Source of the DNA: Chitinivibrionia bacterium
Lineage (GTDB): Bacteria > Fibrobacterota > Chitinivibrionia > Chitinivibrionales > Chitinivibrionaceae
Assembly: GCA_009787445.1 (NCBI GenBank)
Contig: WRFX01000025.1
Span: forward strand, 1 to 21,198
DNA: 21,198 nt
Reading direction: 5' to 3'
Part shown: positions 1 to 20,872 of the stretch, piece by piece
Numbering within the stretch: the stretch's first letter is position 1
Layout: each line of letters starts with the position of its first letter
The notes under the pieces: model-generated
Told to the model about the DNA's origin: nothing
The model's database searches: none
Seen by the model: only the letters and a program-made list of their open reading frames with translations
Position numbers and translations under genes: made by a program

Positions 1-53
1 CTTGAGCGCGTGCAAAAAACAGTCGCAAAATAAATAATTCGTTTTGACAATTT

Positions 54-75
54 GACAAATAGTATTTTTACGGCG
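54..75 (+). promoter_or_regulatory. Recurrent promoter-like motif, instance 1 (gacAAATAGTATTTTTACggcg), upstream of the 105 gene
   Basis: It matches the recurring consensus GGCAAATAgTATTTTTACCG about 30 nt upstream of the start codon. TTGACA hexamers occur at 44-49 and 52-57. Confidence 0.45.
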
Positions 76-683: not shown

Positions 684-750
684 TTTTTTTGAAATATTTA
701 CGTCGCAAATATTATATTAAACTTGTTAAAAACAACTTTTTTAGAACAAA
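684..750 (+). repeat. Intergenic repeat element, copy A (tttttttgaaatattt...gcaaatattatattaaacttgttaaaaacaacttttttagaacaaa)
   Basis: It is ~85% identical to copy B at 20788-20872. Both begin tttttttgaaatatt and contain (c)aatattatattaaa(c/a)t(t/c)gttaaaaacaa(c)tttttt. Both lie immediately 3' of a stop codon. Confidence 0.5.
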
Positions 751-910
751 TCGCTTTTAATACAAATAGAATGCAACGATTACTTAAATTTCTAAAAAGC
801 GGGCATACCATTGAAGAAGCCGAGAAGAAATTTACGTTCGCGTAAATGAAAAGGAAATTTTTTTTGAAAATCGAGGGTCGTGGTTTGAGTGGATTTTACT
901 TGTTATATTT

Positions 911-930
911 GCGCAAATAGTATATTTGCA
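911..930 (+). promoter_or_regulatory. Recurrent promoter-like motif, instance 2 (gcgCAAATAGTATATTTGCa), upstream of the 950 gene
   Basis: The same motif class lies ~20 nt upstream of the RBS. Confidence 0.4.
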
Positions 931-949: not shown

Positions 950-2170
950 ATGTCGTGGACAACGGAACAAATAGAAAAATCGGTTTTTAATTTTGAAAAA
1001 TTTGATAAAAAAACGCAAAAAAAAATTATCGAATTTCTGCAAGAAAATATTTCTTTTGACGATTATTTGAAACAAACCGAAAAAAAGAAAAAAGCGATAG
1101 CGAATACGCAAAACGCAAAAAATATCCTTTTGGGAACGCAGCAAAAATATCCGCGGCATTCGGATTTTTCGCAAATCTCCCTAAATTTACAGGACATAAA
1201 AAATTACGCGATTTTAATAACGGCGGGCGGAGAAGGCGAGCGACTTCGTATTTCGCTCAAAGAAAAAGGATATTCCGACGACGACTTAAAGGACTTCACA
1301 AAAGCGACTTTTCCCATTCCAAATACCGATTACAAATTCGGCGCTTTGGAGGTAAATCTTAAAATGCTCGCCGAATTAAACCCCGAAATTCCCGTTATAG
1401 TAACTACGGGACCAGTCGGCTCGGATACCGAAAAAATAATTCCGCGAATTTTAAGAAAAAACGCGAATTTCGGCGTAAAAAATATAGAAATTATCGCTCA
1501 AAACGAACGACTGCACTTGACAAACGAAAATAAAATCGTGTTTGAAATAGACGAAGAAAACATAAAACCGATTACGAATCCCGACGAAACAGGAGGACCT
1601 ATCGCAAAATTAAAAGACGGCGACATTTTGGAAAATCTTGAAAAAAGCGGAATAAAAAAAATTATGATTTTGCAGGGAACCGCCGTTTATTCCGAAAAAA
1701 TTATCCCGATTATCGCGGCGGCGGGGCAAAACTACGACGGTTTGGGAATCGGAATTTTGCGTAACGAATTTATAGAAAGCGACCCGTACGGCACTTTCGT
1801 TTCGATAAACGATTATAATTTACGAATCATAGAAAAAGAAGTGCGAACGCCGCAAACTTACGCGATAAAGAATGAAAACGGGAAATTTCTTCCTTGCAAT
1901 ACAGGATTTTACGTTTTTGATGTTGAATTGTTAAAAAAAATCGAAATGCCCGATTACGCTACGCCGCCGAAAATTATTTTAGAAGGAATTGAAAAGTCGC
2001 CGAAAATCGGATACGCCGCGACAGATATTATCGCTTTTGCGAAAAAACCCGCGGTGCTTACGATTTCCGACGATGATTTTCGCGTGATAAAAAATGCCGA
2101 AGATATTGATGTTTTGTGGAAATTTTGCGGTTGTGGTGAAAATTCTTTGAAAAGAATTTTGTTTTCGTAA
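950..2170 (+). CDS. Nucleotide-sugar pyrophosphorylase-like protein (eukaryotic-type UDPGP/UAP family), 406 aa
   Basis: An AAGGAG RBS at 937-942 precedes the ATG at 950. The glycine-rich motif ILITAGGEGERL resembles the L(A/N)GG(Q/L)GT(R/S)(L/M)G NTP-binding loop of the UDP-sugar pyrophosphorylases UGP and UAP1. Downstream segments (NPEIPVIVTTGPVGSDTEKII and PDETGGPI...KKIMILQGTAVYS) follow the same domain order as that family. Confidence 0.5.
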   Translation: MSWTTEQIEKSVFNFEKFDKKTQKKIIEFLQENISFDDYLKQTEKKKKAIANTQNAKNILLGTQQKYPRHSDFSQISLNLQDIKNYAILITAGGEGERLRISLKEKGYSDDDLKDFTKATFPIPNTDYKFGALEVNLKMLAELNPEIPVIVTTGPVGSDTEKIIPRILRKNANFGVKNIEIIAQNERLHLTNENKIVFEIDEENIKPITNPDETGGPIAKLKDGDILENLEKSGIKKIMILQGTAVYSEKIIPIIAAAGQNYDGLGIGILRNEFIESDPYGTFVSINDYNLRIIEKEVRTPQTYAIKNENGKFLPCNTGFYVFDVELLKKIEMPDYATPPKIILEGIEKSPKIGYAATDIIAFAKKPAVLTISDDDFRVIKNAEDIDVLWKFCGCGENSLKRILFS

Positions 2171-2417
2171 CTTTTTTCGTATTCTTTTCAAAACAAATAT
2201 TATATTGCTCCCGACTTCCGAAGAAATTGGCAGAGGCTGCGGACAGATAAGTTACGGCGGTTTGGTATTCAATATGCAAGACGGAACGATGGAAAAAAGA
2301 GCTGGCGACGACGTGAACAAGTAGATATATGCCGCGCTTGTCGGCGGTTTTGAGAAAATTTGTGTGTTTTTTCGGGGGCGTATTTTGCGGTACGTCCTTT
2401 TTTTTGTTTGGCGTATA

Positions 2418-2440
2418 TTCGGCATATAGTATTTTTTATG
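2418..2440 (+). promoter_or_regulatory. Recurrent promoter-like motif, instance 3 (TTCGGCAtATAGTATTTTTtat), upstream of the uORF and mod
   Basis: Over ~50 nt of motif, spacer and RBS it is nearly identical to the hisE and OMP instances. Confidence 0.45.
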
Positions 2441-2457: not shown

Positions 2458-2493
2458 ATGAAAACAAGTAAAAATAGAATGTTAAAGATATGA
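2458..2493 (+). CDS. 11-codon upstream ORF (MKTSKNRMLKI) translationally coupled to the methyltransferase gene
   Basis: A strong SD sequence AAGGGAG lies 7 nt upstream of the ATG at 2458. The stop TGA at 2491-2493 overlaps the mod ATG at 2490 (ATGA). The large gene has no SD of its own. The promoter motif at 2418-2440 lies directly upstream. Confidence 0.3.
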   Translation: MKTSKNRMLKI

Positions 2494-5400
2494 TGAAAAA
2501 CACAAGCGTAAACGAAAAATTGAATCGATTTGTCGAACTTTTGGAGGGCATATTTGAACTCGACAAAGCGGATTTGGACTTCGGCATTTACCGCGTTATG
2601 AATATTCGCAAAGACGAGATAAAAAATTTTCTCTCCGACAACTTGCCGAGAAAAATACGGGAAACTCTTGCCCCGTTCGCCGCTAATACCGAAACGCTTA
2701 CCGCTCGCATTGCCGAGATTGAAAAACAAGCCGCCGACCTTGACATAGAAATAACCGCAAGCCCGAAATTATCCGGCGAATATTCCCGTCTCAAATCGCA
2801 ACTTGCGGCTGGTGTGGATTTATCCGCCCTTGAAACGGACGTATATTCCGCTCTGTACAGTTTTTTCAACCGCTACTACGACGAAGGCGATTTTCTTTCC
2901 AAACGCCGCTACAAAGAGGGCGTATACGCAATACCTTACGAAGGCGAAGAGGTAAAACTTCACTGGGCAAACGCCGACCAGTATTATATAAAAACCGCCG
3001 AAAATTTCCGCGATTATTCATTTATCGTCGATAATAAAAAAGTACATTTTATACTCGTTGAAGCGACAACCGAAAAAAATAACAACAAAGAATCAAACGG
3101 CAACGGGCGTACTTTTATGCTATATACGGAAACCGCCGACAGCCCCGACGTTAAAACGATAGAAGGAATAGACGGCGAACTTATCATACGTTTTGTATAT
3201 AACATTCCCGAAGATAAAAAAAGAAATTACGCCGAAGAAAACCTTGCCGCCATAAAGGAGAATATTCATAAAAACTTTCCCGACTTTCAACGTTTACTCG
3301 CGGCAGTTTCCGAAAAAGATAACCGCTCGTTGCTCCAAAAACACTTGACCGCATACGTAGCAAAAAATACGTTTGATTACTTCATTCATAAAGACCTGAA
3401 CGGCTTTTTGACTCGCGAACTTGATTTTTTCATAAAAAGCGAAGTTATTTGTCTCGACGACATCGACACAACCGATGAAAAACGCGTCGAAAGTTACCTT
3501 GCAAAAGTGCGGGCTATAAAGCGCGTCGGAAAAATTATAATTGAATTTTTGTCGCAGATTGAGGAATTTCAGAAAAAACTGTATCTCAAGAAAAAATTCG
3601 TCGTGGAAACAAACTGGTGCTTAACGCTTGACCGCGTAGATGAAAGTTTTTATTCCGAAATAATTGAAAATACAGCGCAGATTGCCGAGTGGCGGGATAT
3701 GTATGCCATTGACGAAATACAAGAAAATTTATCCGCGGCAGTGTATTGCGACCCGCTGACAATTGAATTTCTGCGGCAAAACTCAAACCTTGTACTTGAC
3801 ACACGGCACTTCTCCGCAGATTTTAAAGACCGTCTTGTAGCAAGTATTGATAATTTGGACGAACAGACGGGGGGCTTGCTGATTCACAGCGAAAATTTTC
3901 AGGCGTTGGGATTGTTGCAGGAGAGGTATCGTGGGCAGATTAAGTGCGTCTATATTGACCCGCCGTATAATACCGATGCAAACAGCATTTTATATAAGAA
4001 CGGGTATAAGGATAGCTCTTGGATTAGCTTAATTCAAGATAGACTCCTATTAACAAATATTCTTATGCGTGAAGATTGCCCGATTATTGTAGCTATTGAT
4101 AGTGCAGAACAAGCAGAATTAAAACTTCTATTATCACAGATATATGTAAATTGTGATATTGATTGTGTTGCTATTGTTCATAATCCTAGAGGGATAATAG
4201 GCACAAACTTTTCTTATACCCACGAATATGCTATATTTGTATCGCCAAAAGGGAAAAAGATTGTAGGCAATAAAAAAATAGAACTGGCTGATATTGATTG
4301 GTCTCCCTTGCGAAATTGGGGCGGCGAATCATTAAGAACCGATGCAAAAAATTGTTTTTACCCTATAATAGTTGAAAATGATACCATAATTGGTTTTGGG
4401 GACATATGCGATGATGATTATCATCCAAATCAAACTGAAAAAATCGGAAATCAATTTTTTGTGTACCCTATCGACCAAAATGGTGTTGAACGCAAGTGGC
4501 GTTATGCGAGGCAAACTATTGACACAATTTTCAATTTAATTAAGGCAAAAAAAACAAAAAACGGTTATGATATAGAATTAGGCAAAGATTTTAGCTTGTA
4601 TAAATCCAGTTGGACGGAATCAAAATACGATGCGAGTGTAAATGGAACTCAGCTGATACAATCCATAATTGGCGACAATCCTTTTACATTTCCTAAATCT
4701 TTGTATACTGTTATAGATTGTATTTCTTCTACGACCACTAGTAATTCTATCATCCTCGACTACTTCGCCGGTAGCGGCACCACCGGTCACGCGGTAATAA
4801 ACCTGAACCGCCAAGACAACGGCAACCGCAAATACATCCTCGTGGAAATGGGCGAATACTTCAGCACGGTAATGCTCCCGCGAATGAAAAAAGTCATCTA
4901 TTCCACCGATTGGAAAAACGGCAAGCCGCAAAACCGCAATACCGGCGTAAGCCACATTATGAAGTATTTTACGCTGGAAAGTTACGAGGACGCGCTTTCC
5001 AATATAACGCTTGACGACGATAAACACGAATTGTCGTTAAAATTCGGCGACGAGTATATGGTGCGGTATATGTTTGATTATGAAGCGAAAAACAGTATGC
5101 TCAACCTTGACTTGTTCGCTATGCCTTTCGATTACAAACTGAAAATCAACGAGAACAACGAAACAAAAGAAAAAACCGCCGATTTGTGCGAGACATTTAA
5201 TTATCTTGTCGGATTATCGGTAATAAAACAATCGACGAAAGAATATTTTTCAGCCGACGACGACCCTGACGGCGAGTACGAAAACGCCGTTAGATTGGAA
5301 CCGAATAAAGACGGTAAATTCGTTTTCAAACGGATTGAAGGGAAACTGCCGGATGGCAGACGCGCGCTCGTTATTTGGCGCGTTATTACAGACGATTTAC

Positions 5401-5591
5401 TTAAAAGCAACGCCGCGCTTGACGCGTATTTTTCAAAAAGCAAAAACAATTTTACATACCGCGAATTTGACTTAATATTTGTCAACGGCGACAATAATCT
5501 CGAAAACCTGCGCCGCGACGACGAGAATTGGAAAGTACGGCGCATAGAACCCGTATTCAAAACAAAGATGTTTGAGGCGGCGCAATTTTGA
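2490..5591 (+). CDS. mod: Type III Mod-like beta-class N6-adenine (or N4-cytosine) DNA methyltransferase with ~450-aa N-terminal extension, 1033 aa
   Basis: Motif IV is present as IKCVYIDPPYNT (D490-Y493) and is preceded by LLIHSENFQALGLL. Motif I (SAM-binding) is present as ILDYFAGSGTT (aa ~757). The order IV-TRD-I defines the beta class. A ~260-aa variable region between the motifs is the target-recognition domain (TRD). The stop overlaps the start of the downstream helicase gene. Confidence 0.85.
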   Translation: MMKNTSVNEKLNRFVELLEGIFELDKADLDFGIYRVMNIRKDEIKNFLSDNLPRKIRETLAPFAANTETLTARIAEIEKQAADLDIEITASPKLSGEYSRLKSQLAAGVDLSALETDVYSALYSFFNRYYDEGDFLSKRRYKEGVYAIPYEGEEVKLHWANADQYYIKTAENFRDYSFIVDNKKVHFILVEATTEKNNNKESNGNGRTFMLYTETADSPDVKTIEGIDGELIIRFVYNIPEDKKRNYAEENLAAIKENIHKNFPDFQRLLAAVSEKDNRSLLQKHLTAYVAKNTFDYFIHKDLNGFLTRELDFFIKSEVICLDDIDTTDEKRVESYLAKVRAIKRVGKIIIEFLSQIEEFQKKLYLKKKFVVETNWCLTLDRVDESFYSEIIENTAQIAEWRDMYAIDEIQENLSAAVYCDPLTIEFLRQNSNLVLDTRHFSADFKDRLVASIDNLDEQTGGLLIHSENFQALGLLQERYRGQIKCVYIDPPYNTDANSILYKNGYKDSSWISLIQDRLLLTNILMREDCPIIVAIDSAEQAELKLLLSQIYVNCDIDCVAIVHNPRGIIGTNFSYTHEYAIFVSPKGKKIVGNKKIELADIDWSPLRNWGGESLRTDAKNCFYPIIVENDTIIGFGDICDDDYHPNQTEKIGNQFFVYPIDQNGVERKWRYARQTIDTIFNLIKAKKTKNGYDIELGKDFSLYKSSWTESKYDASVNGTQLIQSIIGDNPFTFPKSLYTVIDCISSTTTSNSIILDYFAGSGTTGHAVINLNRQDNGNRKYILVEMGEYFSTVMLPRMKKVIYSTDWKNGKPQNRNTGVSHIMKYFTLESYEDALSNITLDDDKHELSLKFGDEYMVRYMFDYEAKNSMLNLDLFAMPFDYKLKINENNETKEKTADLCETFNYLVGLSVIKQSTKEYFSADDDPDGEYENAVRLEPNKDGKFVFKRIEGKLPDGRRALVIWRVITDDLLKSNAALDAYFSKSKNNFTYREFDLIFVNGDNNLENLRRDDENWKVRRIEPVFKTKMFEAAQF

Positions 5592-8500
5592 CAAACAAAA
5601 ACGCGGCTTTTTCTAATTTTCAATGGAGCGAACAACTTGTATTGTTTCGTTATTTTCTTTATCTGTTCGGCAAAAATACGCTTGCCGGACTTGCGGGAAA
5701 TATGAACAATTCGGAATATGAAGGCGTTAATGAAAATCAGAATACGTTTTTTTATGACGAATTAGACGGCGTTTTGTCGCGATACGGCGCGAACGCAAAG
5801 GTAAGCCGCGACGCGCTTCGCGAATACGACGAGAATATTTGCCGCTACGTTAAACAAATTGGCGAGAATCGCGGCGGCATTAAACTGAAATATTTTCAGT
5901 ATATCGCGTGTTTATTTACCGAAATATATCTTGACCGTTATTTTACGGACAAAACCGGATTTGCGGAAGAATTAAACGAATTTTCGAAAAAAGTAAAAAA
6001 AGAAAGTTCCGGCTCGATAGACATTGAACAATTCACGCCCGCAAATATGAATAAACTGGCTTTTATGTGCGCCACGGGCAGCGGCAAAACGCTTATTATG
6101 CATATAAATATTTTGCAATTTTCATATTATCTTAAAAAGGCGAAAATGTTTAATCCGCGTATAAATATTAACAAGATTATCGTTCTTGCGCCGAACGAAG
6201 GAATGTCCCAACAACATTTGGCGGAACTTTATTTGTCGCGCATATCGGCGGAGATGTTCGTAAAAAGCGGTTTCGGCAATAGCGCCGATGTGGTCATCGT
6301 AGATATGAACAAACTAAAAGAGGAAGGTAAGGTAAAAACCGTTTCCGTCGACAGTTTTGAACAGAACAATCTCGTGCTTGTGGACGAGGCGCATCGCGGG
6401 CTTGCCGGCGACGTGTGGTACGATTACCGCTCGCGTCTTTCGGCGGAAGGCGGCTTTGCGTTTGAATATTCCGCCACGCTTAAACAGGCGATGAAAACGC
6501 TGAACGTTAAAAAAGACAAAACGCTTCTCGACGAGTATTTCCGTTCGATTATCATTGACTATTCGTATAAATTCTTTTACGAAGACGGTTACGGCAAAGA
6601 ATACCGAATTTATAATCTGCAAGACAGTATAGACGATGAACAGCGGCAATTATATCTTACGGGATGTTTGTTGTCGTTTTATCAACAACTGAAATTATTT
6701 GCGCAAAAAGTCAAGGAGTATGCGCCGTTTAGTTTGGAAAAGCCGCTGCTTGTTTTTGTCGGCAATCGCGTAACTGCAAAAACGTCCGCCGCCGAGATGA
6801 CCGACGTCGAGGAAGTTTTGGACTTTATCGATAAATTCGCGCATAACAGGGAACGAACGATAGGTCGGATAAACGCCGTTTTAAACGAAGACACGGGACT
6901 TACGGACAGCCGCGGACGCGAACTGTTTTCGCAAAATTTCAACGCCTTATTTTCGCTGTTCGGCGCCGCGCCAAAAGCGGAGGACGTTTATAAAGATATT
7001 TTGCGCGTCGTGTTCAACAGCGATACGGTATCCGACGAATTGCGTTTGCATCTCTTAAACTTGCGTCAAGTGCAAGGCGAAATAGCGTTGCGTATAGGAA
7101 AAGACGGCAAGTATTTCGGCGTGATAAGTATCGGGGATACTTCGGGACTTATTAAAAACTGCGAGGCAAAGGGTATTTTTGCCGAAACGGAGGAATTTGT
7201 CAATGAATCGCTGTTTGGAAATATTAACGAAAAAGTATCTAATATTAACGTTCTTATCGGTTCGCGCAAATTTAGCGAAGGATGGAACTCGTGGCGCGTT
7301 TCGACTATGGGACTTATTAACTTCGCGAAGAGCGAAGGGTCTCAGGCAATACAACTTTTCGGTCGCGGCGTGCGGTTGCGCGGATACGGCGGCTGCCTGA
7401 AACGAAGCGGCAAATTAGACGACCGTTCTATTGTTGCGCCGAAAAACATAGAATTGCTCGAAACTTTGACAATATTCGGTATCAAGGCGAAGTATATGGA
7501 AGATTTCAAAAGACATCTTGAAATAGAAGGTATGCCCGTCAACGAGAAACCTCGCGAATACGCGCTACCGGTTATAAGCCGATACGGTGAAATTAAAGAT
7601 AAAAAACTCCGCGTAATTAAGGTTAAAGACGGCGCGAATTTTAAGAAACAGGCGGCGCGGCTAATGCTAGCGGCGCCGGACGAAGGGTTTTTACGTTATT
7701 TGAACGGAAACAAAGCGATTATTGACTGCCGTTCAAAAGTGCAAACGCTGGAATCCGCGTCGAATGAAAGAATACAATTAGCGCCAAGCGAATATACTAT
7801 TGACGAAAAGTATATTCCGTTTCTTGATTACGAGCGAATTTTTGACGAATTACAAACTTATAAAAACGCTAAACTTTATTATAATATTTCTTTGTCTAAA
7901 GACAAAATAAAGGCAATTTTGCTGACGGACGGATGGTACGGGCTTATTATCCCCCCAAGCCATATAAATATCGACAGCATAGAAAAACTTTCTTTAAATA
8001 CCGATTTTGCAATAATGGTATTAAAAATTTATATCGACAAATTTTACAAATACGAAAAAGACCGATGGGAAACCCCGCGGCTCGAATATCAGGAATTGGA
8101 CGAAAACGACAATAATTTTGTCGACGAATACAAATTCTCCTGTTACGGTAATGACGGCGCCGACTCCGTTGCAGATACTGTGGAGCAGTTTGTCAAGGAC
8201 TTGAACGTGCTACTAAAACAGCATAACGGTATTCCGGCATACGAGAATAGTATATTGAACGGCGCGCTTGTCGCTTTTGACTTTCGGCAACATTTGTACA
8301 CGCCGCTTATATCCAAAGCAGGCGACTTAAAATTGACCGTATCTCCCGTAAGTTTGAACGACGACGAGAAAAAATTTGTCGACAAACTGAAATACTATGT
8401 CGACGATAACGTCGATATGTTCGACGGCAAAACATTATATCTGCTCCGCAATAAGAGCAAAATAGGTATGGGCTTTTTTGAAGCGGGCAATTTTTATCCC

Positions 8501-8827
8501 GACTATGTACTTTGGATAGATACGCCAAAAATACAATATGTTTCCTTCATTGACCCGAAAGGACTGCGCCATATACAATGGGACGACCCAAAAATCGAAT
8601 TTTATGCCGCAATAAAAAATCTTGAAACCAGATTGCAGCCGTCAAGCGCCGATAAACAAATTGTGTTGAACTCGTTTATAATGTCCGCTACACGTTGCGA
8701 AGACCTGCGTCAATGGTGGGGCAAGGATATGGCGCAACGCCGCGCCAAGAATGTATTCTGCCTCGACGAGAGCGATTGCATTGAGGGAATGTTCGAGTTA
8801 ATTAAAGATAATTTTAAGAAAACGTAA
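5588..8827 (+). CDS. res: Type III Res-like SF2 DEAH-box helicase with C-terminal PD-(D/E)xK endonuclease motif, 1079 aa (alternative ATG start at 5702)
   Basis: The Walker A motif is CATGSGKTL (aa ~162-168). Motif II is LVLVDEAHRG (DEAH at 266-269). Motif III is YSATL. Motif VI is QLFGRGVRLRG (~aa 589). The C-terminal sequence FYPDYVLWID...VSFIDPKG gives a PD-(x16)-DxK nuclease signature (aa ~971-991). The TTG at 5588 follows GAGG at 10-nt spacing and overlaps the mod stop (tTGA). The first in-frame ATG is at 5702. Confidence 0.85.
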   Translation: MTNKNAAFSNFQWSEQLVLFRYFLYLFGKNTLAGLAGNMNNSEYEGVNENQNTFFYDELDGVLSRYGANAKVSRDALREYDENICRYVKQIGENRGGIKLKYFQYIACLFTEIYLDRYFTDKTGFAEELNEFSKKVKKESSGSIDIEQFTPANMNKLAFMCATGSGKTLIMHINILQFSYYLKKAKMFNPRININKIIVLAPNEGMSQQHLAELYLSRISAEMFVKSGFGNSADVVIVDMNKLKEEGKVKTVSVDSFEQNNLVLVDEAHRGLAGDVWYDYRSRLSAEGGFAFEYSATLKQAMKTLNVKKDKTLLDEYFRSIIIDYSYKFFYEDGYGKEYRIYNLQDSIDDEQRQLYLTGCLLSFYQQLKLFAQKVKEYAPFSLEKPLLVFVGNRVTAKTSAAEMTDVEEVLDFIDKFAHNRERTIGRINAVLNEDTGLTDSRGRELFSQNFNALFSLFGAAPKAEDVYKDILRVVFNSDTVSDELRLHLLNLRQVQGEIALRIGKDGKYFGVISIGDTSGLIKNCEAKGIFAETEEFVNESLFGNINEKVSNINVLIGSRKFSEGWNSWRVSTMGLINFAKSEGSQAIQLFGRGVRLRGYGGCLKRSGKLDDRSIVAPKNIELLETLTIFGIKAKYMEDFKRHLEIEGMPVNEKPREYALPVISRYGEIKDKKLRVIKVKDGANFKKQAARLMLAAPDEGFLRYLNGNKAIIDCRSKVQTLESASNERIQLAPSEYTIDEKYIPFLDYERIFDELQTYKNAKLYYNISLSKDKIKAILLTDGWYGLIIPPSHINIDSIEKLSLNTDFAIMVLKIYIDKFYKYEKDRWETPRLEYQELDENDNNFVDEYKFSCYGNDGADSVADTVEQFVKDLNVLLKQHNGIPAYENSILNGALVAFDFRQHLYTPLISKAGDLKLTVSPVSLNDDEKKFVDKLKYYVDDNVDMFDGKTLYLLRNKSKIGMGFFEAGNFYPDYVLWIDTPKIQYVSFIDPKGLRHIQWDDPKIEFYAAIKNLETRLQPSSADKQIVLNSFIMSATRCEDLRQWWGKDMAQRRAKNVFCLDESDCIEGMFELIKDNFKKT

Positions 8828-8929: not shown

Positions 8930-8953
8930 TTCGGCAAATAGTATTTTTACCGC
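8930..8953 (+). promoter_or_regulatory. Recurrent promoter-like motif, instance 4 (TTCGGCAAATAGTATTTTTACCGC), upstream of hisE
   Basis: This is the best match to the consensus, 19 nt upstream of the hisE ATG. Confidence 0.5.
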
Positions 8954-8971
8954 AAAAATAAGGAGTAATTT

Positions 8972-9235
8972 ATGAAAACGTTTGAAAGTTTATTTAGCGA
9001 GTTGAAAACTAAAATTGAAAACAAAGACCCGAATTCGTACACGGTTAAGGAATACGAAAAAGGCGTGCATTTTATCGGAAAAAAAATAATCGAAGAAGCG
9101 GGCGAGGTATGGATTGCGAGCGAATACGAAGGCAACGAAAAAACCGCCGAAGAAATGTCGCAGTTGATTTATCATATTCAAGTAATGATGCTTGCAAAAG
9201 GCATTACGATAGACGATATTTACGGATATTTATAG
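8972..9235 (+). CDS. hisE: Phosphoribosyl-ATP pyrophosphatase (monofunctional HisE), 87 aa
   Basis: An AAGGAG RBS sits at 8959-8964. The sequence SYTVKEY...[14 protein letters not shown]...[19 protein letters not shown] carries the conserved PRA-PH (MazG-like) motifs, including the (L/I)YH motif. Confidence 0.8.
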
Positions 9236-9245
9236 GAGAAAAAAA

Positions 9246-10094
9246 ATGCTTAAAATTGCAATTCCCAACAAAGGCGCTTTGAACGAAACCGCGCTTGAAA
9301 TAATAAAAAGAGCGGGATATAAATGCCAGATATACGGCAAAGAACTGGTAGTGCGCGACAGCGAACACGACATAGATTTTTATTTTTTGCGCCCGCGCGA
9401 TATTGCGGTTTACATAGGCGACGGAATTATAGATTTGGGAATTACGGGGCGCGATTTGTCTGTCGATAGCAGAGCGAAATACGAGGAAATTTTGCCGCTT
9501 GATTTCGGAAATTCCAGATTTTTTTATGCGGTTCCAAAAGACAGCGCGCTTACGCCCGAAAAACTTAACGGGAAGCGAATCGCTACGGCGTATCCCGCCA
9601 TCGTCGAGCGGGATTTGAAAAAACGCGGATTCGACGCGGAGATAATAAAACTCGACGGCGCGGTGGAAATTTCTATACAGTTGGGAGTCGCGGACGCTAT
9701 CGCCGACGTCGTGGAGAGCGGAAGAACGCTTGTGGAGGCGGGACTTAAAACAATCGGCGAGCCGATTATGGAATCGCAGGCGCTTATTATCGCGAAAGAT
9801 AAAAGCAAACTGAACGATAAAACGGCGAAAATTTTTGTAGAACGTCTCGAAAGCGTGATTATTGCAAAACAGTATTTGATGGTCGAATACGACATTTCAA
9901 AGGAAAATATAGAAAAGGCGGCAAAACTTACGCCGGGAATAGAATCGCCTACTGTTTCGCCGTTAAGCGTAGAAGGATGGTTTGCGGTAAAAGCGATGGT
10001 AAAAGCAAAAGGAGTGAATAAACTTTTGGACGATTTGCACAACGTCGGCGCGAAAGGAATTATCGTCAGCGAAATTAAAATTTGCAGATTGTGA
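9246..10094 (+). CDS. hisG: ATP phosphoribosyltransferase, long form, 282 aa
   Basis: An AGGAG RBS sits at 9233-9237. The N-terminus is MLKIAIPNKGALNETALEII. The segment LRPRDIAVYIGDGIIDLGITGRDL matches the HisG signature region. A C-terminal regulatory domain is present. Confidence 0.9.
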   Translation: MLKIAIPNKGALNETALEIIKRAGYKCQIYGKELVVRDSEHDIDFYFLRPRDIAVYIGDGIIDLGITGRDLSVDSRAKYEEILPLDFGNSRFFYAVPKDSALTPEKLNGKRIATAYPAIVERDLKKRGFDAEIIKLDGAVEISIQLGVADAIADVVESGRTLVEAGLKTIGEPIMESQALIIAKDKSKLNDKTAKIFVERLESVIIAKQYLMVEYDISKENIEKAAKLTPGIESPTVSPLSVEGWFAVKAMVKAKGVNKLLDDLHNVGAKGIIVSEIKICRL

Positions 10095-10140: not shown

Positions 10141-11574
10141 TCATTTCGGCGGTTGTTTTTTGTCGCTTTTTAATTTTTCAAGTAGTCCGTCGACAAGAAC
10201 GCTACCTGTTTCCGATTGCTTTAATCCTTCAATAAACCCGACAAGTCCCGAACCGCCTTTACTTGAAACAATATCTTTTACACTGCTCATACCCGATTGA
10301 ACGTCGCCCGAATTTGCGAGTATTTTCACGTCCGCCGTCGTCAACGCCTTTGCGTATTCGATGCCTATGTCTTTATTGACTTTCAAAGTTTCAATTTGAA
10401 CCAAATAATTTTGATATCCTTCGTTTTCGCCGATTGATTTCGCCAATTCGGTTTGCGCGGTAACGGACGCCAACTGTTTCAATTTTTCTGCCTCCGCTTC
10501 TGCCGCGCCCACGTTTTTAATTGCTTCCGCGTTGCCTTTCCCCGTCAATTTAATACCTTCCGCCTCTTTTTCTTTTTCGATTAAAGCCGCTTCCGCCAAC
10601 TGCTGTTTTTCGTATTTTTTAGCGTCCGCTTCAATTTGTATGTTCCTTTGCTTCGCTTCCGCGTCGACAATCAACGCTTCCTTTTCAATTTCCGCTTTAC
10701 GAACCTGATTTACTCGAATTACTTCCATTTTTTTCGATTCGGTTTCTTTCATCTGCTCTTGGACTTTCTGTTCAGACAACTGTTGCGCCACGCCGATTTC
10801 TTTGTTCGCCTCCGCTTGAGCCACGCCGATTTTTTGGTCGGATTGAGCGTTCGCTTCGCCCGTCTCGCGATTTGCCACCGCCTGTTTTACGGCAACTTCT
10901 TTTTGTGCTTCGATTTCGGCTTCTTGCGCGAGTTTCATATTTTTTGCGACTTCAACCCGCGATTCCATTTCGATGTTCGATTTCTTTTTAGCCATTATAT
11001 TGGCGATTACGTTAGAGTCGAGCGTATCGCGAATATCCATAAGTTCGATAGGTTTTACCGCCGCCACTCCCCAATTTTCCAAATCGTCCTGAACGTCTTT
11101 TGTGAACTGCGAGCCGTATACGCTTCTTTCCTGCATAATGAGTTCCAATTCGGATTTTGCCAAAATTGACCGAACCGAGCCCTGCACAATTCCGAGCAAT
11201 TGGTCTTTAAGTTCCTTAAACGACTCGACTTTTTGAGCCGCGACGTTCGTATCCGATATTCTGAAAAACGCTTTAACGTCTATCAAAAACGGAACTCTGT
11301 TGTTGTCGTAAGCCGAATAATTTATCAAATCCAAATCGAAGTTGCTTACGGGCAATACGCGGACGTCAATTCCAAAAAACGGCATCCATTTTGGAAAATG
11401 ATAATACACGTTTCCCGCTTTTTGCCCTGCTCCGTAAGAAACAGTTTTTTTTGTTCTTTGAACGATATGAACCACATTTGTAGGCACTATTCTGCGAAGC
11501 GTCAAAATCCATACGAAAATTGCCAATGCTATCAAAACAACGATAAAAATTGAAAATCCAATCAATCCTTCCAT
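10141..11574 (-). CDS. Flotillin / SPFH (band 7) family membrane protein, 477 aa
   Basis: An AAGGAG RBS lies 8 nt upstream on the - strand. There is an N-terminal TM helix (IGFSIFIVVLIALAIFVWIL) and an SPFH-domain core. An E/A/K/Q-rich coiled-coil region is followed by a C-terminal tail typical of FloT/YqiK-type flotillins. Confidence 0.8.
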   Translation of the reverse strand: MEGLIGFSIFIVVLIALAIFVWILTLRRIVPTNVVHIVQRTKKTVSYGAGQKAGNVYYHFPKWMPFFGIDVRVLPVSNFDLDLINYSAYDNNRVPFLIDVKAFFRISDTNVAAQKVESFKELKDQLLGIVQGSVRSILAKSELELIMQERSVYGSQFTKDVQDDLENWGVAAVKPIELMDIRDTLDSNVIANIMAKKKSNIEMESRVEVAKNMKLAQEAEIEAQKEVAVKQAVANRETGEANAQSDQKIGVAQAEANKEIGVAQQLSEQKVQEQMKETESKKMEVIRVNQVRKAEIEKEALIVDAEAKQRNIQIEADAKKYEKQQLAEAALIEKEKEAEGIKLTGKGNAEAIKNVGAAEAEAEKLKQLASVTAQTELAKSIGENEGYQNYLVQIETLKVNKDIGIEYAKALTTADVKILANSGDVQSGMSSVKDIVSSKGGSGLVGFIEGLKQSETGSVLVDGLLEKLKSDKKQPPK

Positions 11575-11607: not shown

Positions 11608-11633
11608 CCGCACTAAAATAATATTTGCCCGAC
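11608..11633 (-). promoter_or_regulatory. Recurrent promoter-like motif, instance on the - strand (gtcGGGCAAATATTATTTTAgtgcgg), upstream of flotillin
   Basis: The reverse complement of 11608-11633 matches the consensus ~35 nt upstream of the flotillin ATG. Confidence 0.4.
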
Positions 11634-11662: not shown

Positions 11663-13306
11663 TTAAAACAATCCGCTAATTACACCTTTGTCGTCCACGT
11701 CTATCATTTCCGCCGCGGGATTTTTGGGAAGTCCCGGCATTGTCATTATATCGCCCGCTATCGCTACGACGAATCCCGCGCCCGCCGATAGCCGAATTTG
11801 GCGAACGTTTATTTTAAAACCCGTCGGCGCGCAAATCTTTTTTGCGTTGTCCGTAAAAGAATACTGCGTTTTCGCGATACATACGGGAAGCGAGCCGTAG
11901 CCGAGTTTTTCGATATTCTTTATCTGCCTCGTCGCTTCAGCCGAAAACGTTACTCCGTCCGCGCCGTATATGTTGCGCACTATCGTTTCAATTTTTTCGG
12001 TTACGGGCAAATTCGTATCGTATAAATAGCGGAAATTATTTGGACTGTTAACCGCGCCGAGTATTTTTTCCGCAAGTTCAACTCCGCCTTCGCCGCCGCG
12101 TTCATACACGTCCGAGATAGCGGCGGTCGCCCCGAAACTTTCGGCGGCAACGCAAACGTAATTTAAGTCCTCTTGCGTATCGGACGGAAAACGGTTGATA
12201 GCCGCCACGCACGGAAGTCCGTAGCGTTTCGTCATATTTTCGATATGTCTTTTGAGGTTTGCGACGCCTTCTTTAAGCGAGCCGTCGTCTCCTCCGTGAT
12301 GTTTGAGCGCCCTTACAGTCGCGACGACAACCGCGACAGACGGCTGCAATCCGAACCTGCGGCATTTGACGTCGATAAATTTCTCCGCGCCCAAATCCGC
12401 TCCGAACCCCGCTTCCGTTACGACATAGTCGGCAAGATTTACGGCGGCAAGCGTTGCGGCGGCGCTATTGCATCCGTGCGCGATATTTGCGAACGGTCCG
12501 CCGTGGACGAACGCGGGAGTGTGTTCGAGCGTCTGCACGAGGTTGGGTTTAAGCGCGTCTTTAAGCAAAGTCGTCATCGCTCCGTGCGCGCGCAAATCTC
12601 CCGCGGTAACGGGCGCGCCGCCATACGTATAACCGATAATTATTTTCGACAGGTTTTCTTTCAGCGCGGTTATATTTTCGGAAAGGCAGAACACCGCCAT
12701 AACTTCCGACGCGGCGGTGATATCGAATCCGTCTTCGCGCGGCGTACCGTTTGATTTTCCGTTGAGACCGCCGATATAAAAACGCAGTTGTCTGTCGTTC
12801 AAATCGACCGCCCGCCGCCAAGTTACGCGGCGCGGGTCGATATTCAGCGCGTTTCCTTGCCAGATATGGTTGTCTATCATTGCGGCAAGCAAATTGTTCG
12901 CCGAAGTTATCGCGTGCAAGTCGCCGGTAAAATGCAGGTTTATGTCTTCCATCGGCACTATCTGCGCGTAACCGCCTCCCGCCGCGCCGCCTTTTATCCC
13001 GAACACCGGTCCAAGCGACGGCTCGCGCAGGCAAATTATAACATTCTTTTTAAGCCGCGCCAGCGCATCCCCTATGCCTACGGTCGTGGTGGTTTTGCCT
13101 TCGCCCGCGGGCGTGGGAGTTATCGCCGTTACGAGAATTATTTTCGCGCGCCGTTTGGCGTTTGTCAGCGCGGCGGCATTGAGGTTTAATTTCGCCTTGT
13201 ATTTGCCGTAAAGTTCTATGTCGTTTTCGGCAAGCCCGATTTTTTGCGCTATTGAAGCGATATGTTCCAATTTCGCCTCGCGGTCTATTTCAATGTCGGT
13301 TTTCAT
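11663..13306 (-). CDS. fhs: Formate--tetrahydrofolate ligase (FTHFS), 547 aa
   Basis: The protein begins [12 protein letters not shown]. The motif [19 protein letters not shown] matches the conserved FTHFS nucleotide-binding signature. The start at 13306 is preferred over the upstream ATG at 13375 because a GGGGA RBS lies 6 nt upstream and the length is typical. Confidence 0.9.
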
Positions 13307-13337: not shown

Positions 13338-13361
13338 ATCGGTAAAATAATATTTGGCGAA
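13338..13361 (-). promoter_or_regulatory. Recurrent promoter-like motif, instance on the - strand (TTCGCCAAATATTATTTTACCGat), upstream of fhs
   Basis: The reverse complement of 13338-13361 matches the consensus ~32 nt upstream of the fhs ATG at 13306. Confidence 0.45.
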
Positions 13362-13721: not shown

Positions 13722-13961
13722 ATCGACTTTTAATTAAGCGGATATTTTTCGTTTTCTTTTGCCTGATTTGCGGCAAAAAAAATAACCGAATTTGACATAA
13801 TTAAGTGCAATAAAGTATATTTAAGTAAAATAAAGCGCAATAAGGAGATAAATATGTTAAAAATCGGCGACATACTTGAAAAAATCAAGTTTTTTCATAA
13901 AAAACTCCTTTTGTTTAGGTTTAAATTTTTGAAATATTTGATAAAACGCGTACTATTTTTA

Positions 13962-13984
13962 ATCGGCAGTTAGTATTTTTATCC
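13962..13984 (+). promoter_or_regulatory. Recurrent promoter-like motif, instance upstream of the OMP-lptFG operon (aTCGGCAgtTAGTATTTTTAtcc)
   Basis: The same motif is followed by aaaaaaTAAGGAttaaaactATG, which mirrors the hisE arrangement. Confidence 0.45.
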
Positions 13985-15955: not shown

Positions 15956-18532
15956 ATGATATTTTACAGATACATAGTAAAAGAATTTATGCGTCCGTTT
16001 TTATACTCGGTCGCGGTGATTTTTATAGTTTTTTTTATGCAACTCGTCGCGCAAATTTTACCGAGAGTATTATATAGAGGCGTTTCGTTTGAGATAGTTG
16101 CGGAATTGTTGGTCGTGAATATGGCAGCTATAATTTCTTTGGCTTTGCCTATGGCTCTTTTAATTTCGTCGCTTATGGTTTTTGGAAAATTATCGTCCGA
16201 CAACGAATATACCGCAATGAAATCGGTGGGAATGAGTTTGTTCGATATGTTGCCGCCGATAGTCAGTTTAAGCGCGATAATCGCCGTACTTTTAATGATT
16301 TTCAACAGCAATATTTTGCCCAACGTAAATCATCACGCGGCGCAACTTATGTCGGATATTATGCGAAAAAAACCCGCCGCGCTTATCGAGCCGGGAGTTC
16401 TAATAAAGGATTTTCAGGGTTATGCGATAAAAGTGGATTCGGTAACGACGGGAACGGGAAATTTATACGGAATTACTATTTTTACGACGCAAAACGACCA
16501 AATTCCTATGGTAAGCGTAGCGGACAGCGGAACGCTTTATCTGACAAAAGACGAAAAATATTTGGAATTGACGCTTTTTTCGGGGCAGACGATTAGCGAA
16601 AACATAAGCGGCGAAAGCGGCGGAAGCGAGGCGAATTTTTTTAAGATAAATTTTGAAAAACAGACGATTTTTGTAGAAAATATAGACAGCGAATTTACCC
16701 GAAGCGATTTGCACAATCGCGGAAATCGCGAAATGGCAAACAAAGAACTTTTAGATGAAATTTCCAATTATAACGAAACGATTTCAAACGAAATAATTTC
16801 GTTTAACGACCGACTTTTAGAAATTACCGAAAGAATAGACGACGCTGCGTCCGATACGTCGGCGATTCTTTATATGGACGATTTTTCTCAATGGTATTCG
16901 GCGGTAATCGCCCGTTTGGGAAGTAGAAACGTTAGCGAAATAAAAAGCGAAATAAATTTCACAAAAGCCAGATTGCAAAGAATCGACGAGTATAAAATCG
17001 AACTCAATAAATACAAAATGGAGATTTATAAAAAATATTCGCTTGCAGTCGGCGCGGTGATTTTCGTTATTTTGGGCGTTCCTTTGGGAATAATCGCGCG
17101 CAACGGAAGCGCCGCAATCAGCGTGAGTTACAGTTTGATATTTTTCATTTTTCACTGGACGTTTTTGATAGGCGGCGAATATTTGGTAAATCAGGGAAAA
17201 CTTATTCCCAGCGTCGCTATGTGGGGAGGAAACGCGATTTTTGCGCTCGTCGCCGTGTGGCTTTTAAGAAAGGTGTCGGGCTACGAAAGCAAGTTTAATA
17301 TATTGTCCGTTTTCGGCGCGTTTGCGGACGTAGTTAAAAAGTTCTTCAAAATAACGAAATTAAATCTTGTTTTCGGTTTTGTAAAAACGCTTTTAGGATT
17401 ATTTGCGGATTTGCCGAGAATTGTCCTGAAACTGTTTTTATCGACTATTCCCGCGTATATTATCGGACGATTTTTCTCGTATTTTTTCGTAACGACAATC
17501 GGACTTTGCGTTATTACGGCGGTTATCGATTTTGTAGGAAACATTCATACGTTTACGGGGGCGAAAACTCCCGAATTAGTTAATTATTACTTATATTTTG
17601 TCGCGTCGTTTCTGTCTATGCTTTTGCCTATCTCTATGCTTTTGTCGGTTATGCTTTCGGTGGGTTCCTTCGCGAAAACAAACGAATTGACGGCTATAAA
17701 ATCGGGCGGAATAAGCATCGCAAAAATGACTTCTCCGCTTATACTTATAGGATTTATTATCGCCGTCGGGAATTTTTTCTTCAACGAGACGTTTTTGGGC
17801 AACGCGAACGAAAAATTGGAATTATACAGAAACACGTTTTCCGCTCGGCAGCAAGGACGACCCATTCCGACGGAAGTCGTAGAATTTCGCCGAAATTTTT
17901 ATTATTTTTCCGATGAAAATACCGCCTATTATTTCAGAAAAATCAACACTTCGCCCGCAAACGGCGAAACGGTCGTGCGTTATTCTTTTGAAAATAACAG
18001 AGTAAAAAGTATTGCGACGTCCGATTTTTTGGAATATTCTACCGAAAAAAAACAGTGGATTATGCCCAACGGACAGGAAAAAATTCTGCAACGGGACGGC
18101 GAGGTTTTAGCGAATATTTTGACGCAAAATATACTTTTAGACCTTAATCAGCCGCCAAGCGATATGGTAAAAACTATACGAAGAATAGAAATGATGAGTT
18201 GGACGGAATTGCAAAAAAGAATGGAAAATGCAAAACAACGCGGAGAAAAAACGCAAAAGTATTTGGCAGATAGTAATTTTAAGTTTTCCTTGCCGCTTAT
18301 GAACGTAATTGTCGTGCTTGTCGGCATCGCGGTAACAGCCCGCTCGACCAAACGCGGAGGCGCCGTGCATTTTGGAGCGGGACTTGGATTTGTGTTTATT
18401 TATTGGGGAATCGCGCAATTTTTGATTGTGCTTGGAAGAAACGAATCGGTAGACCCGATAGTCGCGGCGTGGAGCGCGACGGCGCTTTTTACGATTTTAG
18501 GATTTTTTCTTTATACGAGGGCTTCGAGATGA
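15956..18532 (+). CDS. Fused LptF-LptG-like LPS export permease (two tandem YjgP/YjgQ-family modules), 858 aa
   Basis: The first module begins MIFYRYIVKEFMRPFLYSVAVIF..., the typical LptF/G N-terminus. The second module begins ~aa 470 (LPRIVLKLFLSTIPAYIIGRFFSYFFVTTIGLCVITAVID). Each module has TM segments followed by a periplasmic beta-jellyroll-like stretch. Confidence 0.75.
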   Translation: MIFYRYIVKEFMRPFLYSVAVIFIVFFMQLVAQILPRVLYRGVSFEIVAELLVVNMAAIISLALPMALLISSLMVFGKLSSDNEYTAMKSVGMSLFDMLPPIVSLSAIIAVLLMIFNSNILPNVNHHAAQLMSDIMRKKPAALIEPGVLIKDFQGYAIKVDSVTTGTGNLYGITIFTTQNDQIPMVSVADSGTLYLTKDEKYLELTLFSGQTISENISGESGGSEANFFKINFEKQTIFVENIDSEFTRSDLHNRGNREMANKELLDEISNYNETISNEIISFNDRLLEITERIDDAASDTSAILYMDDFSQWYSAVIARLGSRNVSEIKSEINFTKARLQRIDEYKIELNKYKMEIYKKYSLAVGAVIFVILGVPLGIIARNGSAAISVSYSLIFFIFHWTFLIGGEYLVNQGKLIPSVAMWGGNAIFALVAVWLLRKVSGYESKFNILSVFGAFADVVKKFFKITKLNLVFGFVKTLLGLFADLPRIVLKLFLSTIPAYIIGRFFSYFFVTTIGLCVITAVIDFVGNIHTFTGAKTPELVNYYLYFVASFLSMLLPISMLLSVMLSVGSFAKTNELTAIKSGGISIAKMTSPLILIGFIIAVGNFFFNETFLGNANEKLELYRNTFSARQQGRPIPTEVVEFRRNFYYFSDENTAYYFRKINTSPANGETVVRYSFENNRVKSIATSDFLEYSTEKKQWIMPNGQEKILQRDGEVLANILTQNILLDLNQPPSDMVKTIRRIEMMSWTELQKRMENAKQRGEKTQKYLADSNFKFSLPLMNVIVVLVGIAVTARSTKRGGAVHFGAGLGFVFIYWGIAQFLIVLGRNESVDPIVAAWSATALFTILGFFLYTRASR

Positions 18533-20787: not shown

Positions 20788-20872
20788 TTTTTTGAAATAT
20801 TATGAAAAATCATTTTCATCGTTTAAAACAATATTATATTAAAATCGTTAAAAACAATTTTTTGAGAAAATA
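20788..20872 (+). repeat. Intergenic repeat element, copy B
   Basis: It is the partner of copy A and has an internal ~27-nt insertion (atgaaaaatcattttcatcgtttaaaa). It directly precedes the Rpn-like gene start. Confidence 0.5.

Follow-up and report, generated by a model that had tools for sequence, protein, structure and literature searches.

The extended -10 element of bacterial promoters is TGn, the "-16 region" of Gram-positive promoters is TRTG, and the promoters of Campylobacter and Helicobacter are independent of a -35 element. Extended -10 and -35-independent promoters are reportedly the subject of studies by Mitchell in 2003 and by Zhu in 2017. In mycobacterial minimal promoters G is frequent at -13, as it also is in the motif described below. 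Within the FCB superphylum, to which Bacteroidota and Chitinivibrionia both belong, PMC9723704, citing Bayley 2000, Vingadassalom 2005 and Chen 2007, gives the sigma-AB promoter of Bacteroidota as TTTG at -33 and TAnnTTTG at -7; the upstream spacing in Flavobacterium is TTG-N17-23, and the box of F. psychrophilum lies at -12 to -5. For Chlorobaculum tepidum, from a non-Bacteroidota phylum of the same superphylum, the RpoD motif is TTG...TA[ATC][ATC][AT]T (bioRxiv 10.1101/172254). Pseudo-symmetric promoters, in turn, have been proposed to cause divergent transcription (bioRxiv 10.1101/2020.01.31.928960; PMC12825309). Fibrobacterota do not figure in a 49-species survey of mapped promoters, and full-text literature searches returned no promoter description for this phylum.

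Chitinivibrionia is an uncultured class of Fibrobacterota, the termite-gut "TG3" group. The window, by which is meant the whole 21,198-nt stretch of Chitinivibrionia DNA analysed here (a complete MAG contig, GC 40.6%), carries ahead of its genes a recurrent motif that, judged from its sequence and placement, is very probably the core promoter of the primary (housekeeping, sigma-70-family) sigma factor of this lineage. The sequence-only reading of the window had proposed a single dominant promoter class whose -10/-7 element, of the TAnTATwTT type, takes the place of canonical TTGACA-N17-TATAAT, and comparison with about 140 kb of relatives, together with the positions of the motif there, strongly supports that proposal.

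Like the sigma-AB promoters, the motif has TA at -12/-11 and TT at -8/-7, and its -10-proximal box dominates over an upstream TTG of weak conservation and variable spacing. What it lacks is the TG at -6/-5 by which the sigma-AB class is defined: TG follows only 9 of 82 upstream hexamers (G occupies -5 in 6 of 33 aligned sites, and positions -6 to -1 are unconstrained). The Chitinivibrionia motif moreover has an invariant T-10, and the published Bacteroidota consensus contains nothing equivalent to its AwATAk block at -18 to -13. Chitinivibrionia genes also use strong Shine-Dalgarno sites, whereas Bacteroidota genes are without them according to PMC6847099. The Chlorobaculum tepidum motif shares the TA-w-w-w-T box without a terminal TG, but no AwATAk extension is reported there and the Chitinivibrionia hexamer, TATwTT, is more constrained. 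With extended -10 and -16-region promoters the motif has in common a conserved block that abuts the 5' side of the -10 hexamer and a -35 element that is weak or absent. It differs from them in having T-15/A-14 instead of T-15/G-14, A-14 being present in every one of the 33 selected sites and ahead of 70% of upstream hexamers taken without selection; TGn precedes only 3 of 82 hexamers, which places the motif outside the definition of an extended -10 promoter, and its block is longer (-19 to -13) and, together with the hexamer, quasi-palindromic. Although the element is nearly its own reverse complement, as are pseudo-symmetric bidirectional promoters, it gives no sign of antisense initiation, and when read in reverse, as TAmTATwTG, it loses about 7 bits. 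Literature searches for a published counterpart of the AwATAk extension found none.

Copies of the motif in the window

The genes of the window and the copies of the motif are collected in Table 1. At higher coordinates than the formate-tetrahydrofolate ligase (FTHFS) gene lie a 648-aa ORF of unknown function and, after it, LptFG, a 133-aa ORF and a gene for a GGDEF protein; a Pfam search of the neighbouring unknown ORFs gave no matches. LptF and LptG form a single fused 858-aa protein (15956-18532), a fusion common to all the Chitinivibrionia relatives and found also in more distant Chitinispirillales and Chitinivibrionales (34-47% identity).

All nine copies listed in the sequence-only reading are present, each on the strand assigned to it, and a repeat finder recovers copies independently as families D3, D4, D5 and D20. 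The full 21-mer given in that reading matches only two sites in the window at three or fewer mismatches. For the degenerate core AWATAKTATWTT there are eight exact matches, against 0.17 expected when the whole window is shuffled with dinucleotides preserved (none of 100 shuffles reaches eight) and 0.09 expected from resampled AT-rich intergenic DNA (1,524 nt, GC 28%). All eight are intergenic and oriented toward the next gene. The enrichment of the motif is real and far beyond chance. Two further copies were found beyond those first listed, and a copy identical to the one ahead of the LptFG operon stands at the orthologous site in contig L081.

Table 1. Motif copies, genes and associated sites (window coordinates unless a contig is named)
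Feature	Position	Strand	Remarks
Putative hisE-hisG promoter copy	8930..8953	+	30 bits, top score in the window
S-rich box of hisE copy	8932-8935	+	
13-nt core of hisE copy, C-19..T-7	8935-8947	+	CAAATAGTATTTT
Hexamer of hisE copy	8942-8947	+	TATTTT
Predicted hisE 5' leader	8954..8971	+	putative +1 = A8954, 7 nt past hexamer
hisE Shine-Dalgarno site	8960-8965	+	AAGGAG, 6 nt before ATG 8972
Copy for ORF 105-671	51..70, core 56-68	+	25 bits
Copy for ORF 950-2170	909..928, core 914-926	+	TATATT variant
Copy for 11-codon uORF (2458-2493) and mod-res operon	2418..2437, core 2423-2435	+	
Copy for 648-aa ORF and LptFG operon	13962..13981, core 13967-13979	+	core CAGTTAGTATTTT
Copy for Band-7/SPFH gene	11613..11632, core 11615-11627	-	
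Copy for FTHFS gene	13342..13361, core 13344-13356	-	
Weaker copy	706..718	+	CAAATATTATATT; in 39-nt repeat 708-746 (family D14); 11 bits with 20-nt matrix
Weaker copy	20828..20840	+	ACAATATTATATT; in second 39-nt repeat; 35 nt before ORF 20876
Further copy	2194..2206	+	CAAATATTATATT; no convincing ORF before terminator 2374-2409
Further copy	13809..13821	+	AATAAAGTATATT; preceded by TTGACA-N18; short ORF starts 13854
39-nt direct repeat holding both weaker copies	708-746, 20830-20868		90% identical
Unknown ORFs	105-671, 950-2170	+	
mod-res restriction-modification pair	2490-8827		
hisE and hisG	8972-10094		
SPFH/Band-7 gene	10141-11574	-	
Formate-tetrahydrofolate ligase gene (FTHFS)	11663-13306	-	
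Sigma-28-like sites	L220 8113-8300, 9054-9292; L083 11964-12070	-	

Several further features of the window lie close to copies of the motif. A possible 24-codon ORF (771-845) follows the weaker copy at 706..718. The 13-mer TTTTTGAAATATT is present in three exact copies (686-698, 13926-13938 and 20789-20801), each about 20-40 nt upstream of a copy of the motif, and at one mismatch or fewer it has four matches against 0.84 expected. Between the copy at 2194-2206 and the strong terminator-like hairpin that follows it is an ORF-poor stretch of about 190 nt, and the unit 2194-2409 may be a candidate small RNA; an Rfam search of the ORF-less unit 2216-2410 gave no match, and its fold z-score is only -1.4. 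The mod gene is preceded by an 11-codon uORF, MKTSKNRMLKI*, with a Shine-Dalgarno site of its own, whose stop overlaps the mod start in ATGA (2490-2493), which suggests that mod is translationally coupled to the leader peptide. A motif-like 20-mer within LptFG, TTTGGCAGATAGTAATTTTA (18262-18281, +), was considered as an internal promoter and rejected: it encodes an invariant L-A-D-S-N-F-K, it is kept in all relatives (L081, L082, L083, L085 and L086), and its resemblance to the motif is best explained by coding constraint.

Anatomy of the element

The recurrent unit had been described as a module of about 45 nt, yet the constrained block amounts to about 13-20 nt and the remainder consists of generic leader features. 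Nor is the identity among the hisE, mod and OMP copies as high as the approximately 85% over 50 nt that was claimed: measured values are 81% (hisE and mod), 75% (hisE and OMP) and 65% (mod and OMP). Likeness beyond the core consists of an A-rich leader, an AAGGAG-like Shine-Dalgarno site and ATGAAA, and in a seven-way alignment of the window copies the invariant columns are confined to the core and the A-rich leader.

For a finer view of the element, 33 non-identical sites were aligned and numbered so that TATwTT occupies -12 to -7. The 13-nt conserved block, cAwATAkTATwTT, runs from C-19 to T-7 and comprises the TATwTT hexamer and a linked AwATAk extension; the constrained positions are C-19, A-18, w-17, A-16, T-15, A-14, K-13, T-12, A-11, T-10, W-9, T-8 and T-7, with conservation highest at T-12, A-11, T-10, T-8 and T-7. 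Hexamer frequencies in an unselected matrix obtained by expectation maximization (EM) are T 0.85, A 0.91, T 0.92, w, T 0.97 and T 0.91, and the near-invariance of T-12, A-11 and T-7 is that of the -10 element of a sigma-70-family (group 1) promoter. A weak G/S preference at -21/-20, corresponding to the "CGGC" of the sequence-only reading, is strong in this genome and weaker in relatives. When sites are chosen on TATWTT alone, AWATAK is attached to 24 of 82 upstream hexamers and to 3 of the 694 that lie inside genes (p = 3e-22); the element genuinely includes its left half.

Further upstream, no position beyond -21 exceeds 0.42 bits in the 33 sites. TTG occurs at -38 to -33 in 10 of them against a shuffled expectation of 4.0, with similar counts in neighbouring windows, and a scan for canonical TTGACA/TATAAT, with 65 matches against 44 expected, is not discriminating. 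A fixed -35 element is absent, and the sites do not show a TTGACA at 17 +/- 1 bp.

Downstream of the hexamer, A content rises from 27% to 59% after six unconstrained positions (39 sites, p = 6e-12), so that the A-rich stretch begins exactly 7 nt past the hexamer. In sigma-70-family (group 1) promoters the start site lies 6-8 nt past the hexamer, and this jump likely reflects transcription that begins at a purine at such a spacing and runs on into an A-rich leader. Start codons stand a median of 34 nt past the last base of the core (interquartile range 28.5-42, range 18-72), which would correspond to leaders of about 15-45 nt with AAGGAG-like sites. In the mechanism proposed here, TATwTT would serve as the -10 element through T-12, A-11 and T-7, and the contiguous c-A-w-A-T-A-k from -19 to -13 would be contacted much as an extended -10 is, so that no fixed -35 hexamer would be needed. 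Transcription would start about 7 nt after the hexamer, usually at A, and yield a short, A-rich leader with a Shine-Dalgarno site.

Only at hisE does the copy extend to a near-perfect palindrome of 21 nt, CGGCAAATAGTATTTTTACCG (8932-8952), which a terminator scan flags as a minus-strand hairpin; the outer arms of this palindrome (flanking ACCG) are not conserved in other copies.

The motif in related genomes

Related Chitinivibrionia contigs were collected through homologues of LptFG and HisG, a metagenome search with the LptFG alignment yielding 10 loci, and together comprise about 140 kb (L081, L082, L083, L085, L086, L089, L091, L092, L093, L094, L095 and L220). HisG of L220 is 84% identical to that of the window. 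The more distant Fibrobacterota contigs L087, L098, L099 and L221 were also compared. The primary sigma factor of the sigma-AB clade lacks region 1.1. An rpoD gene is absent from the window and from the fetched related loci.

Blind ZOOPS EM discovery, run from 175 random seeds on 66 upstream regions (window plus 11 related contigs), arrives at cAwATAkTATwTT and estimates its occupancy at 0.83. When 121 kb of relatives is scanned with a matrix built from the seven window copies only, 23 matches reach 14 bits or more. Sense-oriented positions up to 120 nt upstream of start codons make up 5.2% of strand-space and take 11 of these matches (binomial p = 5e-9). The same placement is seen for 7 of 12 matches in the independent contig L220 (p = 6e-6), where all five matches of at least 17 bits stand 19-31 nt before a start codon. 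Cores of at least 12 bits lie within 75 nt of the start in 39 of 73 upstream regions, as opposed to 3 of 182 control windows within coding sequence, and a strong copy is absent from about half of upstream regions. Orientation can also be judged free of annotation: in 14 cases the next 80 nt contain a Shine-Dalgarno site, start codon and ORF, and the mirror orientation gives only 2 such cases. Within co-directional intergenic regions of the relatives the ratio of sense to antisense matches ranges from 11:4 to 3:2 and is not significant on its own, partly because the core is quasi-palindromic and short genes are uncalled; this comparison is underpowered.

Conservation at an orthologous gene is seen at hisE, where L220 carries CATATAGTATTTT 20 nt before the ATG, with the geometry kept and both the flanks and the genes upstream different from those of the window. 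The genes downstream of the motif are functionally unrelated and include his genes, FTHFS, SPFH, Lpt, restriction-modification (R-M) genes, a TetR regulator, dxr, a radical-SAM enzyme and pfkB; such sense placement at the starts of operons of unrelated function is that of a sigma-70-family (group 1) promoter. Scans for tRNAs and Rfam families found one tRNA only, without a usable upstream region, and the motif is known here from protein-coding genes.

Beyond the relatives, viral contigs scanned for GCAAATAKTATTTTT gave single, chance-level matches per contig. In the distant Fibrobacterota contigs the likeness is limited to the hexamer portion (TAnTATATT, TTATTTT), and one ribosomal-protein gene among them has TTGACA-N18-TATATT; the full 13-mer seems, from these comparisons, to be specific to this termite-gut clade. 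Three consecutive transcription units of L220 (14248-14290, 15089-15126 and 16230-16270, minus strand) share a variant core, CAAAACGTATTTT, in which AC replaces TA at -15/-14 and which may constitute a promoter sub-class. In L091, a 531-nt "spacer" (4546-5078) holds three minus-strand copies with a tiny ORF after each, one of 8 codons, and these are probably unannotated short genes.

The flagellin genes of L220 and the fliD gene of L083 are without the motif and carry instead sequences of the type TAAA-N15-GCCGATAA, the sigma-28 (FliA) pattern, which the motif does not fit. This division between the flagellar genes and the rest fits a split between housekeeping and alternative sigma factors; the lineage encodes flagella and probably a FliA regulon.

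Competing readings and significance

The comparisons show directly that the motif is conserved in sequence, position and orientation, that it is general across unrelated genes and across genomes, and that sigma-28-type flagellar promoters are without it; which sigma factor uses it, where exactly transcripts begin and which part of sigma reads the AwATAk block are inferred. In a bolder reading, the motif of termite-gut Chitinivibrionia would be a -35-independent, quasi-palindromic 13-bp promoter in which AwATAk stands in for TGn, read by a primary sigma factor whose region 3.0/2.4 specificity has changed to something intermediate between canonical sigma-70 and Bacteroidota sigma-AB; the symmetry of the motif might also drive routine bidirectional initiation. 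As a whole, this bolder reading is doubtful.

It is highly improbable that the motif is instead an AU-rich element of the mRNA 5' leader, such as a ribosomal-protein-S1 or standby site that would enhance translation, with the promoter lying further upstream. Such an element would account for the constant placement of the motif ahead of a Shine-Dalgarno site and never more than 72 nt from a start codon, and it has in its favour that the sequence-only reading called the motif a promoter/leader module and that only protein-coding genes could be examined. A leader element would not account for a distance to the Shine-Dalgarno site of anything between about 8 and about 50 nt in combination with a position-specific sequence in which T-A-T..T-T is invariant as in -10 elements. 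Terminator-like hairpins directly 5' of the motif, at 2374-2409 in the window and after tRNA-Cys in L089, leave no room for a further upstream promoter, the sharp change of composition downstream fits a start site, and the sigma-28-driven flagellar genes have Shine-Dalgarno sites and no motif.

Similarly, a promoter belonging to the regulon of an alternative sigma factor, or a promoter cassette that has recently spread by mobility, is very unlikely. The motif is the top result of blind discovery across all upstream regions of 12 contigs and several genomes, whose LptFG proteins are 63-86% identical to that of the window, and the genes it precedes serve core metabolism and envelope biogenesis as well as accessory functions. 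Some copies are unusually alike over about 50 nt, hisE and mod in particular, and two weak copies reside in the nearly identical units of the 39-nt repeat, as a mobile cassette would predict; flanks beyond the 13-20 nt core, however, cannot be aligned.

Still less probable is an operator for an abundant dimeric protein, a global repressor or nucleoid protein, recognising the palindrome AAATA-n-TATTT. The core is a near-perfect inverted repeat, and at hisE the symmetry extends to CGGCAAATA/TATTTTTACCG, called as a hairpin, but neither the other copies nor the relatives keep the flanking CGG/CCG symmetry. Conservation is much stronger in the right half of the core than in the left, and the centre base is G/T in 31 of 33 gene-oriented sites and C/A in 2, a choice to which a symmetric site would be indifferent. 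The distance from the motif to the A-rich onset is fixed, and its presence at half or more of operon starts is too general for a regulator. Finally, as regards an alternative sigma factor, the motif is unlike the sigma-54, sigma-28 and ECF consensus sequences, and readings of it as a sigma-54 or a canonical sigma-70 promoter were rejected on sequence grounds, from the consensus sequences and the canonical scan.

What a primary-sigma promoter can reveal about the history of the gene behind it is limited, as illustrated by the R-M cassette. The sequence-only reading held that the motif dates this cassette as native to the genome; that step is not supported, for FTHFS, a gene of atypical composition, has a copy that is just as good. 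The composition of mod and res is ordinary (GC 0.41-0.43). FTHFS, with a GC of 53% and a GC3 of 59% against about 40% for its neighbours, has best matches in a reference genome search that are only 65% identical and come from MAGs of termite-gut Firmicutes (Defluviitaleaceae) and Treponema, which makes it a candidate horizontal acquisition now placed behind a host-type promoter. Thus, a host-type promoter shows expression by the host machinery only, and not the time of a gene's arrival.

The motif is a local variant of an ordinary type of signal and implies no new mechanism. Its value is that it furnishes a usable promoter model for an uncultured class without genetics or start-site maps, one by which the beginnings of operons, short genes and possible small RNAs can be located in these MAGs and which would guide the design of expression signals for Fibrobacterota. 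Together with Bacteroidota and Chlorobi, the putative housekeeping promoter of Chitinivibrionia would also provide a third data point on how the specificity of the primary sigma factor has diverged within the FCB superphylum.
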